From Escherichia coli (lineage in GTDB: Bacteria > Pseudomonadota > Gammaproteobacteria > Enterobacterales > Enterobacteriaceae), in the NCBI RefSeq assembly GCF_044647545.1, contig NZ_CP172818.1: DNA of 64,000 bases; one strand, written 5' to 3'. Below the pieces are notes generated by a model. The model saw only the letters and a list, made by a program, of their open reading frames with translations. It was not told the DNA's origin and ran no database searches. Shown one piece after another: positions 6,994-13,296 of the stretch (position 1 is its first letter; each line of letters begins with the position of its first letter). A program made the translations under genes and the position numbers.

Positions 6994-7893
6994 TTATGCA
7001 GAGAAAAAGGCGATGAGAATCGGCACTAACAGACTAAGAATAAAACCGTGAACAATCGCCGCCGGGACCATATCCAGCCCGCCAGTACGTTGAAGAACGG
7101 GCAGGGTGAAATCCATCGATGTGGCACCGCATAAGCCCAGTGCAGTAGAGCGGCTGCGGCGAATCAGCCCAGGGATCAACATAATAGCAATCAGCTCACG
7201 GGCCAGATCATTAAAAAACGCCGCGCTCCCGATTACCGGACCAAAAGATTCGGTCAATAAAATACCGGAAAGAGAATACCAGCCGAAACCGGAGGCCATT
7301 GCCAGCGCGGTATTGATGGGAAGATCAAGAATAAAGGCGTTAATTAAACCACCAATTAATGAACTGGCAACCACCACCACGGCGACAATCATTCCCCGGC
7401 GATTAAGGACAATCTGCTTTAAGGTCATGCCATTATTGCGCAACTGAATACCGACGAGGAAAAGTAGCAGAATTAAGGTGTATTCACTGGCTTCGGTCGC
7501 GTGTTGTAAGAAAGCCAGTCCACTCAGGCCAATGGCAAAACCAATCACTACTACGCCGCACAGTTTTAGCGACTCCAGCGCCATCGCAATACGCGATGGG
7601 AGTTTTTCTTGCTGGTGGTAGTTGCGCCACGGCAGACCGCGCTCCAGCCACATCAGGGCGGCAATATTACACAGTAAAATAACGGTAATACTGACAGCAG
7701 AATAATGCAGAATCGCCAACAGGTTACTGGCGAGGTTATCGAGAAACGCCAGACTGATACCCATAAAAAAGAGAATGAGGTAAACCATCCAACTTAATAG
7801 CTGATTAATAACTTTTAATGCAGCTTTTTGGCGAAGCGGAATGAGGTAACCCAAAATCAGGGGAACCAGAATGATTAACAGCCCAGAAAACAT
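6994..7893 (-). CDS. lysO: inner-membrane lysine exporter LysO/YbjE
   Basis: ORF 6994-7941, highly hydrophobic; start placed at MFSGLLIILVPL (299 aa) from recalled length, upstream in-frame Met possible. Confidence 0.8.
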   Translation of the reverse strand: MFSGLLIILVPLILGYLIPLRQKAALKVINQLLSWMVYLILFFMGISLAFLDNLASNLLAILHYSAVSITVILLCNIAALMWLERGLPWRNYHQQEKLPSRIAMALESLKLCGVVVIGFAIGLSGLAFLQHATEASEYTLILLLFLVGIQLRNNGMTLKQIVLNRRGMIVAVVVVASSLIGGLINAFILDLPINTALAMASGFGWYSLSGILLTESFGPVIGSAAFFNDLARELIAIMLIPGLIRRSRSTALGLCGATSMDFTLPVLQRTGGLDMVPAAIVHGFILSLLVPILIAFFSA

Positions 7894-8297
7894 GAAAACC
7901 CAGTCCTTGCAAAGATGAAGTCGAAATGCGCGATGACACACTACTGAAAGCGGAAGGACGAGTAAAGTTGCAATTAAAAGGAAATGTTATGCATCAGGAG
8001 CAGGGGATTTTTATTATGTTGCATTGTTGTGGTCTCTTCCATGTGCATTAAGCCACTGGCGAGGAGCGCAAATCGCCGATCGTTTCCTGTAGGCCGGGGC
8101 AGCCCACATAATGTGGGCTGAGGGCGCGTTTTACAGGGATCAAACTTACCGGTCGCGCGAGAAGTCCAACTTCAGCCCGAGGTTCATGTGGCTTCCTGGC
8201 CTTCGGGAACCGCTTCAGCGTATTGACGCCACCAAGACCCGTGGTTCGGTAACGTCGAAGATAAAACAACCAGGGCAGATAAAGTGCCAATGCTTAA

Positions 8298-8993
8298 TTA
8301 ATTACGTTTTTCCAGTAGAGTCCGGTAAATCAGACCACCGATAATACCGCCGACAATTGGCACCACCCAGAAGAACCACAATTGTTCTAACGCCCAGCCG
8401 CCCTGGAAGATAGCAACCGCGGTGCTGCGCGCCGGGTTAACAGAAGTGTTAGTCACCGGAATACTGATTAAGTGAATCAGGGTTAAGGCCAGACCAATAG
8501 CGATCGGCGCAAAACCTGCCGGAGCGAATTTGTCGGTTGCGCCGTGGATCACCAGCAGGAAACCTGCACTCAATACCAGTTCAACTACCAGCGCGGAAAG
8601 CATGGAATAACCGCCTGGCGAATGCTCGCCATAACCGTTAGAAGCAAAACCGCTGGCTGCCGCGTCAAAACCTGTTTTACCACTGGCAATTAAATACAGC
8701 AGCGCCGCCGCAACAATACCGCCGACAACCTGGGCAATTACGTAGCCAACGACTTCTTTTGCCGGAAAACGTCCGCCAGCCCATAAACCAATAGTGACCG
8801 CCGGGTTAAAATGACCACCAGAAATATGACCAACAGCGAAGGCCATCGTCAGAACGGTCAGACCGAATGCCAGCGCCACGCCGGCAAAACCAATGCCTAA
8901 TTCCGGGAAGCCTGCGGCCAGTACGGCACTACCACAGCCACCAAAAACAAGCCAGAAAGTACCAAAACATTCAGCTGCTAATTTTCTGAACAT
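8298..8993 (-). CDS. aqpZ: aquaporin Z water channel
   Basis: ORF 8298-8999; two NPA motifs ([14 protein letters not shown]); start at MFRKLAAE for 231 aa. Confidence 0.93.
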
Positions 8994-9339
8994 ATCCACC
9001 TCAATTAAAAATTGACCCTGTGAAAAATATGGTCGTTTTATAGGGTCGTCGTAAAAAAGTGACGACGGAAATAATGCGCGGCTATTTTAAAAACGAAGGC
9101 GAGTCATTCACCAGATAAATAAATCCAGTAAATTTGATTTAGGGCAACAGCGGGTTGCCCCATATAGTCATTTGTCTGATTGACAGTGTAGTGCAAGCAA
9201 AAGATTTAATCCTTTAGGCGTAATAAAAAATAATTTATCATGCTAATTATTTGATTTTGTTGTTTTTGCAGGCTTATCAGCAAGAGGGAGTATAACGCGA
9301 TTATTCGCTCATTTTTCAGACATTTGCCATGCTTAAATG

Positions 9340-9352
9340 TGATGTCATCACG
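9340..9352. promoter_or_regulatory. 13-bp palindrome GTGATG-T-CATCAC about 70 bp upstream of ybjD start; candidate operator
   Basis: Perfect 6-bp inverted arms around a central T, read directly from sequence; function not established. Confidence 0.3.
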
Positions 9353-9418
9353 TATTAGCAAGGCCTTTCCCGTTATACTGCCAGCGTAAAGGATAAGTCA
9401 CATATTTCTGGAGGGGAT

Positions 9419-11077
9419 ATGATTCTTGAGCGCGTTGAAATTGTGGGTTTTCGCGGTATCAACCGTTTGTCGTTGATGCTGGAACAAAACAACGTCCTGA
9501 TTGGGGAGAACGCGTGGGGTAAATCCAGCTTGCTGGACGCCTTAACCCTGCTGCTATCGCCAGAATCAGATCTCTACCATTTTGAGCGCGACGATTTCTG
9601 GTTCCCGCCGGGAGATATCAACGGGCGAGAACATCATCTGCATATTATTTTGACCTTCCGCGAATCGCTGCCAGGCCGACATCGGGTTCGCCGCTATCGA
9701 CCGCTGGAAGCGTGCTGGACGCCATGCACCGATGGCTATCACCGTATTTTTTATCGTCTGGAAGGGGAGAGTGCGGAAGACGGCAGCGTGATGACACTCC
9801 GCAGTTTTCTCGATAAAGACGGACATCCGATTGATGTCGAGGATATTAACGATCAGGCACGCCATCTGGTGCGTTTAATGCCGGTGCTGCGCTTGCGTGA
9901 TGCCCGTTTTATGCGCCGTATTCGTAACGGCACGGTGCCAAATGTCCCTAATGTGGAAGTCACCGCGCGCCAGCTCGATTTCCTCGCCCGTGAGTTATCC
10001 TCACATCCGCAAAATCTCTCTGATGGGCAGATTCGTCAGGGACTTTCCGCAATGGTACAGCTGCTTGAGCATTATTTCTCTGAGCAGGGGGCCGGACAGG
10101 CGCGATATCGTTTAATGCGGCGGCGAGCCAGCAATGAGCAACGAAGTTGGCGCTATCTGGATATCATCAACCGGATGATTGACCGACCTGGAGGGCGCTC
10201 GTATCGGGTTATTTTGCTCGGCCTGTTTGCTACTTTGTTGCAGGCAAAAGGCACATTGCGACTGGATAAAGACGCCCGTCCATTGTTGCTGATCGAAGAT
10301 CCAGAAACCCGTTTACACCCCATTATGCTTTCAGTTGCCTGGCATCTGTTGAATCTTCTGCCATTGCAGCGCATTGCCACCACCAACTCTGGCGAGCTGC
10401 TTTCGTTAACGCCGGTAGAGCATGTTTGCCGACTGGTACGTGAGTCCTCGCGCGTTGCCGCCTGGCGTCTGGGGCCGAGTGGTTTGAGTACCGAAGATAG
10501 CCGACGCATATCCTTTCACATTCGTTTTAACCGTCCGTCATCGCTGTTTGCACGCTGCTGGCTGCTGGTGGAAGGGGAAACGGAAACCTGGGTTATCAAT
10601 GAACTGGCGCGTCAGTGCGGACATCATTTTGATGCTGAAGGGATCAAGGTCATTGAGTTTGCCCAGTCCGGGCTAAAGCCACTGGTTAAATTTGCCCGGC
10701 GAATGGGGATTGAATGGCATGTACTGGTCGATGGCGATGAAGCAGGGAAGAAATATGCCGCTACGGTACGCAGCCTGTTGAATAACGATCGGGAAGCCGA
10801 ACGAGAACATTTAACGGCGTTACCGGCGCTGGATATGGAACATTTTATGTATCGCCAGGGATTTTCCGATGTGTTCCACCGCGTGGCGCAAATCCCGGAA
10901 AATGTACCGATGAATCTGCGCAAAATTATCTCGAAAGCGATCCATCGCTCTTCCAAACCCGATCTTGCCATTGAAGTGGCAATGGAGGCCGGACGTCGTG
11001 GTGTGGACTCCGTACCGACGCTGCTGAAAAAAATGTTCTCACGCGTGCTGTGGCTGGCGCGCGGTCGCGCGGATTAA
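9419..11077 (+). CDS. ybjD: OLD-family ATP-dependent endonuclease-like protein (N-terminal ABC/AAA ATPase, C-terminal Toprim-like region)
   Basis: 552-aa ORF; Walker A GENAWGKSS near N-terminus; acidic Toprim-like motifs LLVEGETE and LVDGDEAGK in C-terminal third. Confidence 0.85.
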   Translation: MILERVEIVGFRGINRLSLMLEQNNVLIGENAWGKSSLLDALTLLLSPESDLYHFERDDFWFPPGDINGREHHLHIILTFRESLPGRHRVRRYRPLEACWTPCTDGYHRIFYRLEGESAEDGSVMTLRSFLDKDGHPIDVEDINDQARHLVRLMPVLRLRDARFMRRIRNGTVPNVPNVEVTARQLDFLARELSSHPQNLSDGQIRQGLSAMVQLLEHYFSEQGAGQARYRLMRRRASNEQRSWRYLDIINRMIDRPGGRSYRVILLGLFATLLQAKGTLRLDKDARPLLLIEDPETRLHPIMLSVAWHLLNLLPLQRIATTNSGELLSLTPVEHVCRLVRESSRVAAWRLGPSGLSTEDSRRISFHIRFNRPSSLFARCWLLVEGETETWVINELARQCGHHFDAEGIKVIEFAQSGLKPLVKFARRMGIEWHVLVDGDEAGKKYAATVRSLLNNDREAEREHLTALPALDMEHFMYRQGFSDVFHRVAQIPENVPMNLRKIISKAIHRSSKPDLAIEVAMEAGRRGVDSVPTLLKKMFSRVLWLARGRAD

Positions 11078-12066
11078 CCGCGAAACATCGTGGCCATTTG
11101 TGGCTGAATAGCGTCGAGCATCTCATAGCGCCGACGGTATTCAGCCCGTTTTTTACTGGCGATTTCGGCAATCTCTTTTCGTGCTATCTGTGCTGGAAGG
11201 CGGTAATGGCGTTCAGCATCACATACGCCGCCAACCGACTCCCAGAACGCGTTGTAATCGGCATGGATCTTGCCTTCTTTATCACGATAACGCAGGCTGC
11301 GGTAAATATGCGTTTCATTGCTGACGGCAATAATCTGCTCTACCTGCAAACGTTGGGCAAACAGACAGGCCGCTTCCATCACGAGGCGTTTGGGAAATAG
11401 CCCGTGGCAGGCTTTCGTCGCATTCTGGATTTCCTGGTGTGGAATTTCCCATTTTGCGCCTTGCAGTCCGCCAATAAACATCGTCCTTTTCCCCTGATAT
11501 TCACACAGGGTAAACGTGAGCTCTGCCAGAGGAATACCTTCGCTGTTGCGGAACAGGATGGTGCTGTCACCTTCTTTATCCATTGAGATCATCATGGTCA
11601 GCTCAAGCGTGAACTGCTCGCCGTTTTTGCCTTCCAGCTTCGCCAGTTGCAGCCCGGGGGTATTCAAATATAAGCTGAATTCTTCCGCCGACATACACCC
11701 GCGGAGTAACGCATAATGGTAACGTAACGCCTCCAGCAATTGCTTACGGCTAAGATTCGCCGCAAGGTAAGGGCGATGTAGACGTACAGGCAGTCGCGGC
11801 TGGCGCGTTAACAACACATTGAGATTAGGCCAGTGGGAAAGTTCGTTCATCCACTCAACGCTTAAACGCGGCATAATCAACGAGCGCAGCAAAAATTTCT
11901 GGCGAAAACTACGGCGATGCCAGAATTTACCCGGCCGACACTGTCCACGTGCCAGACTAAGAAAAAGTGACAGGCTGCTGAGAGATTCAGATGGCGTAAA
12001 GGTCCGTTCAGTTAGCTGCGACATATTCATGAAATCAATGATTATACATGACGTCGATTTCACCAT
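11074..12066 (-). CDS. ybjX: VirK/YbjX-family protein (DUF535)
   Basis: 330-aa ORF; stop codon overlaps ybjD stop by 4 bp (convergent); identity from recalled sequence and position. Confidence 0.75.
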   Translation of the reverse strand: MVKSTSCIIIDFMNMSQLTERTFTPSESLSSLSLFLSLARGQCRPGKFWHRRSFRQKFLLRSLIMPRLSVEWMNELSHWPNLNVLLTRQPRLPVRLHRPYLAANLSRKQLLEALRYHYALLRGCMSAEEFSLYLNTPGLQLAKLEGKNGEQFTLELTMMISMDKEGDSTILFRNSEGIPLAELTFTLCEYQGKRTMFIGGLQGAKWEIPHQEIQNATKACHGLFPKRLVMEAACLFAQRLQVEQIIAVSNETHIYRSLRYRDKEGKIHADYNAFWESVGGVCDAERHYRLPAQIARKEIAEIASKKRAEYRRRYEMLDAIQPQMATMFRG

Positions 12067-12180
12067 TGCGTATCTTAACCAAACATCAATAGTGTGATTA
12101 CTAACGTAAATTTTAGGGTTTTGTTGATATTTCGTTGAAGTTAATGACCCGGATTGGCATATGGAGTATTCAGAATATTT

Positions 12181-13296
12181 ATGAAAAAGCGGAAAACCGT
12201 GAAGAAGCGTTACGTTATTGCGCTGGTGATAGTCATCGCCGGACTGATTACGTTATGGAGAATTCTTAACGCACCCGTTCCGACTTATCAGACGCTGATT
12301 GTGCGCCCCGGTGATTTACAGCAAAGCGTGCTGGCGACCGGAAAGCTGGACGCGCTGCGTAAGGTTGACGTGGGCGCGCAGGTCAGCGGTCAGTTGAAAA
12401 CGCTGTCGGTGGCGATTGGCGATAAAGTAAAAAAAGACCAGCTTTTAGGGGTTATTGATCCTGAACAGGCTGAAAACCAGATCAAGGAGGTGGAAGCAAC
12501 GCTGATGGAGCTACGCGCGCAGCGGCAGCAGGCGGAAGCGGAGCTGAAACTGGCGCGGGTGACGTATTCCCGTCAGCAACGTCTTGCACAAACGCAAGCG
12601 GTTTCACAGCAGGATCTCGATACCGCCGCGACGGAGATGGCTGTGAAACAGGCGCAAATTGGCACCATTGACGCGCAAATCAAGCGCAATCAGGCCTCAC
12701 TCGATACGGCTAAAACCAATCTCGATTACACCCGCATCGTTGCCCCGATGGCCGGGGAAGTCACGCAAATCACCACTCTGCAAGGCCAGACGGTGATTGC
12801 CGCACAACAAGCACCGAACATTCTGACGCTGGCAGATATGAGCACCATGCTGGTAAAAGCGCAGGTTTCTGAAGCGGATGTAATCCACCTGAAGCCGGGG
12901 CAAAAAGCCTGGTTTACGGTGCTTGGCGATCCGCTGACGCGCTATGAGGGGCAAATCAAGGATGTGCTACCGACGCCGGAAAAGGTTAACGACGCTATTT
13001 TCTATTACGCCCGTTTTGAAGTCCCCAACCCCAATGGTTTGCTGCGGCTGGATATGACCGCGCAAGTGCATATTCAGCTCACCGATGTGAAAAATGTGCT
13101 GACGATCCCTCTGTCGGCGTTAGGCGATCCGGTTGGCGATAATCGTTATAAAGTCAAATTGTTGCGTAATGGTGAAACACGCGAGCGTGAAGTGACGATT
13201 GGCGCACGTAACGATACCGATGTTGAGATTGTCAAAGGGCTGGAAGCTGGCGATGAAGTGGTGATTGGTGAGGCCAAACCAGGAGCTGCGCAATGA
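12181..13296 (+). CDS. macA: macrolide efflux periplasmic adaptor (membrane fusion protein)
   Basis: ORF 12154-13296; start at [16 protein letters not shown] (371 aa); coiled-coil-rich MFP sequence; stop overlaps macB start. Confidence 0.88.

Follow-up and report, generated by a model that had tools for sequence, protein, structure and literature searches.

The locus analysed here raises the question of what an OLD-family ATPase-nuclease does when it is encoded alone, amid housekeeping genes, in the chromosome of Escherichia coli. In the window (the whole 64-kb stretch of DNA that was analysed), an ATG-initiated ORF coding for 552 aa plus stop occupied positions 9419..11077 on the + strand, exactly as claimed in a preliminary description of this DNA, and was supported by the ORF list, RefSeq and Pfam. 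Its sequence was 100% identical to RefSeq ybjD of strain FDAARGOS_497, which carries the label 'ybjD: ATP-dependent endonuclease'. This ORF is ybjD, a core gene of E. coli (K-12 b0876; proposed name oldB), which belongs to Pfam family DUF2813 and to the E. coli 'y-ome'. That ybjD encodes a standalone OLD-family ATPase-nuclease is already known and was published before: Schiltz et al. 2019 placed YbjD in Class 1 of the OLD proteins (PMC6755086), and the Atahualpa 2026 micropublication characterised it in vivo and reported it as a Class 1 OLD (PMC13261556). What is added here is the synteny across the whole order, the data on selection and the description of an apparently Class 2-type C-terminal region. 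Papers on SGI1 also use the name 'ybjD', there only as an annotation label for GajA beside a UvrD-like gene, and these were set aside.

A Shine-Dalgarno sequence, GGAGGGG (9410..9416, + strand), was read 2 nt 5' of the ATG. A candidate terminator (11102..11155, + strand), composed of a 15-nt inverted repeat and a T-run, lay within the 3' end of the convergent ybjX and included a terminator-like site at 11133-11150, identified by consensus match only. The aqpZ gene was divergent from ybjD, and a promoter consensus scan of the 419-bp spacer between them detected no sigma-70-like site; on the other side, ybjX overlapped ybjD by 4 bp and was followed by macAB. There was no Rfam match in positions 7800-12300 at E<=0.1, and the repeat search gave just short two-copy matches without evident meaning. 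The whole window consisted of housekeeping genes, and no defence island was found within its 64 kb.

Family assignment was sought with sequence profiles and predicted structures, both of which had been proposed as checks. Pfam recognised DUF2813 over aa 1-375 (E=3.5e-160) and OLD-like_TOPRIM (PF20469) over aa 376-440 (E=7.8e-16), while AAA_15 (E=9e-9), AAA_29 and SMC_N matched aa 1-50; these scores were far beyond chance level. Among PADLOC models, GajA (7e-80) and Old (2e-24) came first, and the AriA model matched aa 1-51 only. A profile search against the PDB retrieved Thermus OLD (2.3e-22) and GajA (2.5e-20). With the full-length AF2 model (pLDDT 89.7), Foldseek ranked GajA first (1.6e-19) and also returned Thermus OLD (1.7e-17). 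No NCBIfam model reached its curated cut-off, and the only matches there were N-terminal P-loop matches to MADS3, RecF and PtuA. P2 Old was too distant from YbjD to be reached by tblastn at 1e-6. The OLD-family ATPase-Toprim architecture previously read from the sequence is thus backed by Pfam, PADLOC, the PDB profile search and the predicted structure, and there is very little doubt that YbjD is a standalone OLD-family ABC ATPase-Toprim protein. Residue conservation was counted over 93 homologs displaying 28-54% identity.

The ATPase head is of the Rad50/SMC-like ABC type and is formed by aa 1-160 and 286-375, split by an insertion at aa 161-285. Its N-terminal lobe (9419..9898, + strand), covered by AAA_15, AAA_29 and SMC_N and beta-rich in the model, aligned to Thermus OLD 1-140 and to GajA in the PDB profile search. 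The Walker A motif GENAWGKSS (P-loop) was located where it had been announced, at 9503..9529 (+ strand; aa 29-37), with K35 at 9521-9523; it was well conserved for G29 (92/93), E30 (93/93) and G34 (91/93), and K35 was kept in 82/93 homologs, with Arg in 10. The helical insertion (9899..10273, + strand) displayed helices at 177-277, with low pLDDT at 172-175 and 229-241, and had the lowest amino-acid identity among the five YbjD domains. According to the model and alignment, it takes the same topological place as the dimerisation domain of Thermus OLD (PMC7049728) and presumably serves for dimerisation in YbjD too. The pentapeptide LSDGQ (aa 200-204), considered as an ABC signature motif, was discarded: it was not conserved in the family and falls in this insertion. 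The C-terminal lobe (10274..10543, + strand) carried the Walker B residues E293-D294, the D-loop H300 and, at the H-loop position, N323. In the alignment, Thermus E276, H283 and H310 corresponded to E293, H300 and N323, so that in both proteins Glu takes the place of the Walker B Asp and the D-loop contains a His; an Asn variant at the H-loop position was mentioned by Schiltz 2020. Conservation was uneven in this lobe, being high for H300 (92/93), E296 (87/93) and E293 (82/93), and relaxed for N323 (54/93) and for the second Walker B acidic residue, D294, which varied among the homologs (47/93).

These features bear on how the ATPase may work. The reported K35A mutant kept its phenotype and was more toxic rather than inactive (PMC13261556). 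Since the second Walker B acid and the H-loop are degenerate and K35A is not inactivating, the head would act mainly as a nucleotide-binding switch and not as a motor, the ATP-bound state restraining the protein as in GajA. We rate this ATP-switch regulation slightly below an even chance; that ATP-bound means 'off' is suggested by one mutant from one short report and by analogy with GajA.

The ATPase head is followed by the Toprim nuclease (aa 376-470) and then by a C-terminal helical bundle (aa 471-552). The Toprim domain (10544..10828, + strand) was delineated by PF20469 and by a four-stranded beta/alpha fold in the models. Both acidic stretches noticed earlier were present, LLVEGETE at aa 382-389 (nt 10562-10585) and LVDGDEAGK at aa 436-444 (nt 10724-10750), and structure prediction gave a Toprim fold whose catalytic Glu and DxD were invariant or nearly so. 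The first stretch includes the motif E385-G-E387-T-E389 (10571..10585, + strand), in which E385 (93/93) would be the metal A and E389 (92/93) the metal B glutamate, E387 being likewise invariant (93/93). The second includes D438-G-D440 (10730..10738, + strand; 92/93 and 93/93), the DxD motif attributed to metal A. E385/E389 mapped to E400/E404 of Bp OLD (Burkholderia pseudomallei) and E377/D381 of Thermus OLD, and D438/D440 to Bp D455/D457 and Thermus D431/D433.

Beyond the Toprim domain, the C-terminal domain (10829..11074, + strand), Class 2-type in the model, was composed of helices 473-490, 500-510, 513-527 and 534-549. It contains the putative metal B ligands D472-M-E474 (10832..10840, + strand; D472 89/93, E474 93/93), whose order and x-spacing are those of Bp T506-x-E508 and Thermus S478-x-E480. 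Further on, the candidate catalytic lysine K513 (10955..10957, + strand) belongs to an invariant S-K-P motif (K513 and P514 93/93) and, as does Bp K562, comes from the helical domain. The YbjD nuclease residues therefore mapped one-to-one onto Bp OLD E400/E404/D455/D457/T506/E508/K562. No conserved basic residue occurred at +7 from E474, the site of R487 in Class 1 Thermus OLD and K550 in P2 Old; this position (481) was Gly in 92/93 homologs. When the C-terminal region (CTR) was modelled (pLDDT 95.2) and submitted to Foldseek, Bp OLD 6NK8 (TM 0.68, E=6.3e-7) and 6NJW from Xcc OLD (Xanthomonas campestris; TM 0.70) were matched over ~200 columns, and Thermus 6P74 ranked 18 with TM 0.39.

From this mapping, based on sequence order and fold similarity, it is quite probable that YbjD possesses a two-metal, Class 2-type nuclease site. 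Metal A would be held by E385/D438/D440 and metal B by E389/D472/E474, with K513 contributed from the helical bundle; such an arrangement would be that of Class 2 (Bp OLD/GajA-type) and not that of the Thermus/P2 Class 1. The class label depends on the criterion. By context (a gene standing by itself, next to neither a helicase nor a reverse transcriptase nor a split partner) YbjD falls in Class 1; by structure (no C-terminal helical domain and an Arg/Lys ~7 residues past the metal-B Glu) it does not, and the catalytic region concealed by the context-based 'Class 1' label is of Class 2 type.

A GajA-like site invites the explanation that YbjD is an orphaned Gabija-type GajA that lost GajB and now cooperates with UvrD, Rep or RecBCD, a host SF1 helicase whose gene lies at another locus. 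Fold of the CTR and location of the catalytic lysine follow Class 2, the GajA HMMs scored far above the Old HMM, full-length Foldseek put GajA first, and Class 2 OLDs were reported to be nested within Class 1 diversity (PMC12796447). Yet, no UvrD-like gene was seen beside ybjD family genes at the ~90 loci examined, and the toxicity of YbjD is RecBC-independent (PMC13261556), which makes this pairing improbable. Homologs retrieved by their C-terminal half only were also considered as possible GajA proteins with a GajB neighbour, and turned out to be likewise standalone DUF2813 proteins.

The seven nuclease residues (E385, E389, D438, D440, D472, E474 and K513) were kept in 89-93/93 homologs and were conserved more strictly than the ATPase motifs, which suggests that the native role of YbjD probably needs the nuclease. 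Across Enterobacterales, the Toprim domain and the ATPase C-lobe were among the most conserved YbjD domains, the Toprim domain ranking top in 3/6 comparisons.

The distribution of ybjD was that of a core gene. Of the complete E. coli genomes, 5424/5426 carried it, and in 80 Enterobacterales species its slot was fixed between lysO/hcp and cspD-clpS (hcp and lysO serving only as position markers in this survey), with aqpZ, ybjX and macAB coming and going around it. The observation that ybjD stands alone between aqpZ and ybjX/macAB, without a partner gene, was borne out and could be extended to these 80 species as well as to Vibrio, Motilimonas and Chitinilyticum: no neighbour was conserved across the 80 Enterobacterales loci, and the neighbours differed in the latter three genera and in metagenomic homologs. 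YbjX, AqpZ and MacA gave no PADLOC match. As a candidate partner, ybjX was rejected; besides lacking such a match, it was missing in many of the species possessing ybjD and its dN/dS was 3-8 times higher. No phage homolog was recorded in 50,697 genomes, and the plasmid-labelled entries among the matches listed were chromosomes, chromids or chromosomal fragments. In 79/80 species the ORF was intact, the one exception (locus L068) displaying an indel, and dN/dS was about 0.015-0.03, at or below the values of aqpZ and macAB. Generic traits of defence modules (patchy occurrence, island or mobile location, fast evolution) were not those of ybjD, which behaves like a vertically inherited housekeeping/core gene, a result that is new here.

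The same data address the idea that ybjD is a relic, decaying or devoid of function, whose motifs are leftovers. This could be argued from the lack of a reported knockout phenotype (PMC13261556) and from the use, in laboratories, of the stretch between aqpZ and ybjD for neutral insertions; in the lesion-tolerance paper concerned, ybjD names only that integration site (PMC9203016). However, the intact ORFs and low dN/dS values just described, the persistence of the catalytic residues in homologs down to 28% identity and the detection of a ybjD transcript (PMC13261556) all oppose it, and the relic reading is effectively refuted by the selection analysis.

Far more weight must be given to the proposal that YbjD truly is a standalone anti-phage nuclease of Class 1, in which a phage cue would trigger cleavage of phage or host DNA or of tRNA, as for P2 Old. 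Every characterised bacterial OLD protein acts in defence (PMC10568477), the top PADLOC models were defence proteins of the GajA and Old types, and the 2026 micropublication adopted this reading. There, pBAD induction of YbjD at a non-toxic inducer level reduced the plaquing of Bas18 and Bas20 and gave smaller plaques with Bas64-68 (PMC13261556). These effects were weak and seen on overexpression only, and the Keio ybjD knockout was the same as its parent against 68 BASEL phages (PMC13261556). Moreover, the overexpression phenotype survived mutation of the acidic residues and even removal of the entire Toprim domain, and phenotype and toxicity were RecBC-independent, unlike those of P2 Old (PMC13261556). 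An invariant nuclease site would remain unexplained if defence worked without the nuclease, and the distribution of ybjD described above is the opposite of that of a defence gene, from its near-universal presence, order-wide synteny and low dN/dS to the lack of phage copies, of true plasmids among the matches listed and of a defence island in the window. We therefore consider an anti-phage nuclease a serious possibility, although a rather doubtful one. The preliminary description is upheld as regards OLD family membership, and the anti-phage role that it implies is weakened by the knockout, by the Toprim-independent effect and by the core-gene-like evolution.

Being Toprim-independent, the overexpression effect would more probably be a by-product of too much ATPase/insertion domain. 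Selection bears hardest on the nuclease site, yet the published phenotype is nuclease-independent; the real function has thus probably still to be observed. In the explanation proposed here, YbjD would act alone, without a conserved partner gene, and its native job would be a conserved, nuclease-requiring cellular function in nucleic acid surveillance or processing. Whether this native role lies outside defence, YbjD not being a mobile anti-phage module, we consider evenly balanced; core conservation alone is compatible with defence. Two observations count against a non-defence role: the only reported phenotypes are anti-phage, in line with the other bacterial OLD proteins, and ybjD is non-essential (PMC13261556) with no known housekeeping phenotype. 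As a whole, the explanation appears only slightly better than an even bet, a figure set by its weakest layers.

A more far-reaching scenario is that the YbjD/DUF2813 clade is a 'domesticated' Class 2-type (GajA-like) OLD that lost its helicase partner or never had one, became fixed in the chromosomes of Enterobacterales and related Gammaproteobacteria and ensures nuclease-dependent DNA or RNA housekeeping, the anti-phage effect being an overexpression artefact. Taken with all its parts, this scenario is speculative and, at present, unlikely. Class 1 OLDs have been put at 0.45% of genomes on the basis of DefenseFinder (quoted in PMC12392090), a value that would probably leave out the near-universal enterobacterial ybjD clade.

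Compared with known systems, YbjD combines traits of several. Class 2 Bp OLD and Xcc OLD (6NK8, 6NJV/W/X) and GajA of Bacillus cereus (8SM3) resemble it in the Toprim domain and C-terminal helical bundle, and Bp and Xcc OLD, like YbjD, have the full set of two-metal ligands with a Lys from the helical domain. Sequence identity to Class 2 OLDs is nevertheless just 12-18%, none of the loci examined displayed an adjacent UvrD/PcrA/Rep-like helicase (GajB), and Gabija GajA is patchy and island-borne whereas ybjD is chromosomal and core. Class 1 OLDs (Thermus scotoductus 6P74, phage P2 Old and Vibrio cholerae OLD) are isolated single genes, as is ybjD, and share with it the ABC ATPase with a helical insertion and the Toprim domain. 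In contrast to the Class 1 structures, YbjD displays the helical domain and K513, and P2 Old is lethal to recBC cells and depends on its nuclease, neither of which holds for YbjD. In PARIS, the AriA ATPase and the AriB Toprim are separate proteins, instead of the one fused polypeptide of YbjD. A precedent for a non-defence OLD is provided by Cran1, a Class 5 ATPase-nickase from Saccharolobus islandicus (PMC12796447). Going by its published description, Cran1 has a homogeneous taxonomic range, seems to be inherited vertically and has no link to defence, the same evolutionary signature as that of YbjD in Enterobacterales. It is archaeal, essential and cell-cycle regulated (PMC12796447), while ybjD is bacterial and dispensable. 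Should the domestication scenario prove true, YbjD would be the bacterial counterpart of archaeal Cran1.

In the ORF list, ybjD appeared as an intact frame of 552 codons (9419-11077, + strand), and a ribosome-binding site, GGAGGGG (9410-9416), was read upstream of it. The DNA was 100% identical in E. coli FDAARGOS_497, where the RefSeq label is 'ybjD: ATP-dependent endonuclease'. The preliminary description had placed this frame correctly, together with three motifs of its product, i.e. GENAWGKSS (aa 29-37, nt 9503-9529), LLVEGETE (aa 382-389) and LVDGDEAGK (aa 436-444). As an OLD-family gene, ybjD is already described: the family was defined with E. coli YbjD (b0876) as query and E. coli was counted in Class 1, i.e. 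among single isolated genes (Schiltz et al. 2019, PMC6755086), while a 2026 micropublication reported its transcription and proposed the name oldB (PMC13261556). The finding thus restates published work on a known family; the observation is confirmed and its interpretation supported.

Assignment to the OLD family held at the profile level. Pfam placed DUF2813 on aa 1-375 (E=3.5e-160) and OLD-like_TOPRIM on aa 376-440 (E=7.8e-16), with P-loop matches AAA_15, AAA_29, AAA_21 and SMC_N at the N-terminus, and PADLOC returned GajA models (best 7e-80) and Old (2e-24). The PADLOC match to AriA was limited to the first 51 residues, and no NCBIfam model scored above cut-off for YbjD. A profile of 93 family members retrieved Thermus scotoductus OLD (2.3e-22) and Bacillus cereus GajA (2.5e-20) from the PDB, with PtuA, then Rad50, SMC, RecN and RecF heads as lower matches. 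The proposed Toprim fold was borne out by a confident AlphaFold2 model, built from the alignment of these 93 family members (mean pLDDT 89.7, pTM 0.89), whose best Foldseek matches were GajA (1.6e-19), Thermus OLD (1.7e-17) and retron Eco8 OLD.

The Class 2 site of Burkholderia OLD comprises E400/D455/D457 for metal A, E404/T506/E508 for metal B, and K562 from a C-terminal helical domain (Schiltz 2019, PMC6755086). Thermus OLD, of Class 1, is devoid of this domain and uses R487, at +7 from E480; E543 and K550 of P2 Old are likewise spaced (Schiltz 2020). The YbjD counterparts were E385/D438/D440, E389/D472/E474 and an invariant K513 in a helical bundle (helices 473-549), a bundle that likens YbjD to Class 2 proteins (Burkholderia, Xanthomonas, GajA), whereas the +7 Arg/Lys of Thermus OLD and P2 Old had a near-invariant Gly as counterpart (position 481, +7 from E474). 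When residues 358-552 were modelled separately (pLDDT 95.2), the fold matched the whole of two Class 2 C-terminal regions, namely Burkholderia 6NK8 (E=6.3e-7, TM 0.68) and Xanthomonas 6NJW (TM 0.70); GajA came next and Thermus OLD ranked 18 (TM 0.39). As modelled, YbjD is Class 1 by context and Class 2-type in its catalytic region, which is a statement of fold likeness and not of phylogeny. This mismatch fits the report that Class 2 is nested within Class 1 diversity (PMC12796447).

DUF2813 proteins at 30-45% identity occurred in Vibrio, Motilimonas, Chitinilyticum, Aeromonas and Proteus. At seven inspected loci carrying six distant homologs, the gene stood alone each time, neighbours varied by locus and no UvrD-like helicase was found nearby; neither YbjX, AqpZ nor MacA had a PADLOC match. 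The earlier claim that ybjD has no partner gene was thereby upheld. Giant versions (780-1867 aa) made up 14 of the 150 best family representatives, including P0149, P0163, P0165, P0175, P0196 and P0162 from Anaerobiospirillum (1188 aa). In the latter, a ~220-aa insertion after residue 68 splits the DUF2813 ATPase and a ~490-aa extension without Pfam match follows the Toprim domain.

This solitary gene belongs to the core genome, being found in 5424/5426 complete E. coli genomes (>=95% DNA identity), and its product is ~90% identical in Salmonella and Citrobacter. Scanning GTDB with one genome for each species gave at least 494 loci; the 80 best were all from Enterobacterales and extended to Serratia, Hafnia, Pectobacterium and Brenneria (64-68% identity). 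In all 80, ybjD occupied a slot between lysO/hcp and cspD-clpS, whereas aqpZ, ybjX and macAB were each lacking in some lineages (e.g. ybjX in Klebsiella oxytoca, Raoultella, Pectobacterium and Mangrovibacter; macAB in Pectobacterium, Brenneria and Mangrovibacter). The ORF was uninterrupted in 79/80 loci. The remaining one, in Citrobacter amalonaticus AUH_CA_2023_1 (7001-8658), gave a match of 1658 nt, not a multiple of three, with its best HSP from 7329; either a frameshifted pseudogene or an indel in the assembly may explain it. Measured against the copy in the window, Nei-Gojobori dN/dS ranged from 0.015 (E. albertii) to 0.029 (Citrobacter), equal to or under aqpZ and macAB and far under ybjX (0.06-0.23). 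The Toprim domain and ATPase C-lobe were most conserved, the helical insertion least. LSDGQ (aa 200-204, nt 10016-10030) was rejected as an ABC-transporter signature (LSGGQ): since it lies within this insertion and is unconserved in the family, the resemblance to that motif is due to chance.

The divergent neighbour aqpZ is separated from ybjD by 419 bp (9000-9418), in which neither a sigma-70 match (promoter consensus scan) nor an Rfam match was found; in laboratory strains this spacer serves as a neutral site into which lambda int-xis cassettes are integrated (PMC9203016). Downstream, the convergent ybjX (VirK family, 11074-12066) overlaps ybjD by 4 bp (11074-11077) and is followed by macAB, cspD and clpSA. 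This pair is on the ExcludonFinder list of convergent excludons seen in RNA-seq data (PMC12288877), so that transcription of either gene may interfere with that of the other. The sole terminator-like hairpin for ybjD, an inverted repeat (11102-11146) with T-run in the region 11074-11155, lies within ybjX coding sequence. ybjX itself evolves much faster than its neighbours, with repeated losses, dN/dS up to 0.23 and 45-60% identity where YbjD shows 85-91% (loci L002-L081).

No integrase or defence island was found in the other 44 kb of the window, an ordinary housekeeping chromosome (including cydCD, ftsK, rarA, serS, pflB, rpsA and msbA). Among 50,697 phage genomes, tblastn (1e-6) found no YbjD homolog except for a match to residues 1-98 in one 2-kb record, a record that we read as host-derived DNA. 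The plasmid-collection (PLSDB) matches listed were mislabelled chromosomes, chromids (Vibrio and Salinivibrio) or chromosomal fragments. Among records H13-H37 (e.g. NZ_CP134387.1, 88 kb; NZ_CP148327.1, 42 kb; CP125156.1, 5.4 Mb), those with ybjD at ~100% identity were either megabase-sized chromosomes or small pieces with ybjX still adjoining; the E. coli genome count likewise gave 6 'plasmid' places. PLSDB therefore includes mislabelled chromosomal sequence.

Among 93 homologs (28-54% identity), nuclease-region residues E385, G386, E387, D440, G443, E474, K513 and P514 were conserved in 93/93, E389 and D438 in 92/93 and D472 in 89/93. In the ATPase, where Thermus K34, E276, H283 and H310 correspond to K35, E293, H300 and N323, conservation reached 82/93 for K35 (Walker A, Arg in 10) and E293 (Walker B), 47/93 for D294 (second Walker B acidic residue) and 54/93 for N323 (H-loop position). 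From these counts, the nuclease centre is under the strictest selection in the YbjD clade. Yet this centre is dispensable for the sole published phenotype: the anti-phage effect was unchanged by Toprim deletion (378-552) or acidic-residue mutations, lost upon ATPase-domain deletion and kept, with higher toxicity, in mutant K35A (PMC13261556). We infer that laboratory work has yet to reveal the native function. The main rival explanation, a genuine but narrow anti-phage protein, finds its argument in pBAD-induced YbjD, which reduced plaquing of BASEL phages Bas18 and Bas20 and gave smaller plaques with Bas64-68; with the Keio knockout, none of 68 BASEL phages revealed a phenotype and, unlike P2 Old, YbjD did not kill recBC(ts) cells (PMC13261556).

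By analogy with the Burkholderia and Thermus structures, YbjD would dimerise via its helical insertion and perform two-metal phosphodiester cleavage, in which K513 would stabilise the transition state. The degeneracy of its hydrolysis residues, the hyper-toxic mutant K35A and the GajA precedent suggest that the ATPase head may act as a nucleotide-binding switch whose ATP-bound state restrains the enzyme. The native role is the least certain layer; together with the class mismatch, it makes up the modest interest of ybjD. The evolutionary signature of YbjD, which agrees with the reasoning put forward for archaeal Cran1 as a non-defence OLD (PMC12796447), favours a conserved cellular function requiring the nuclease.
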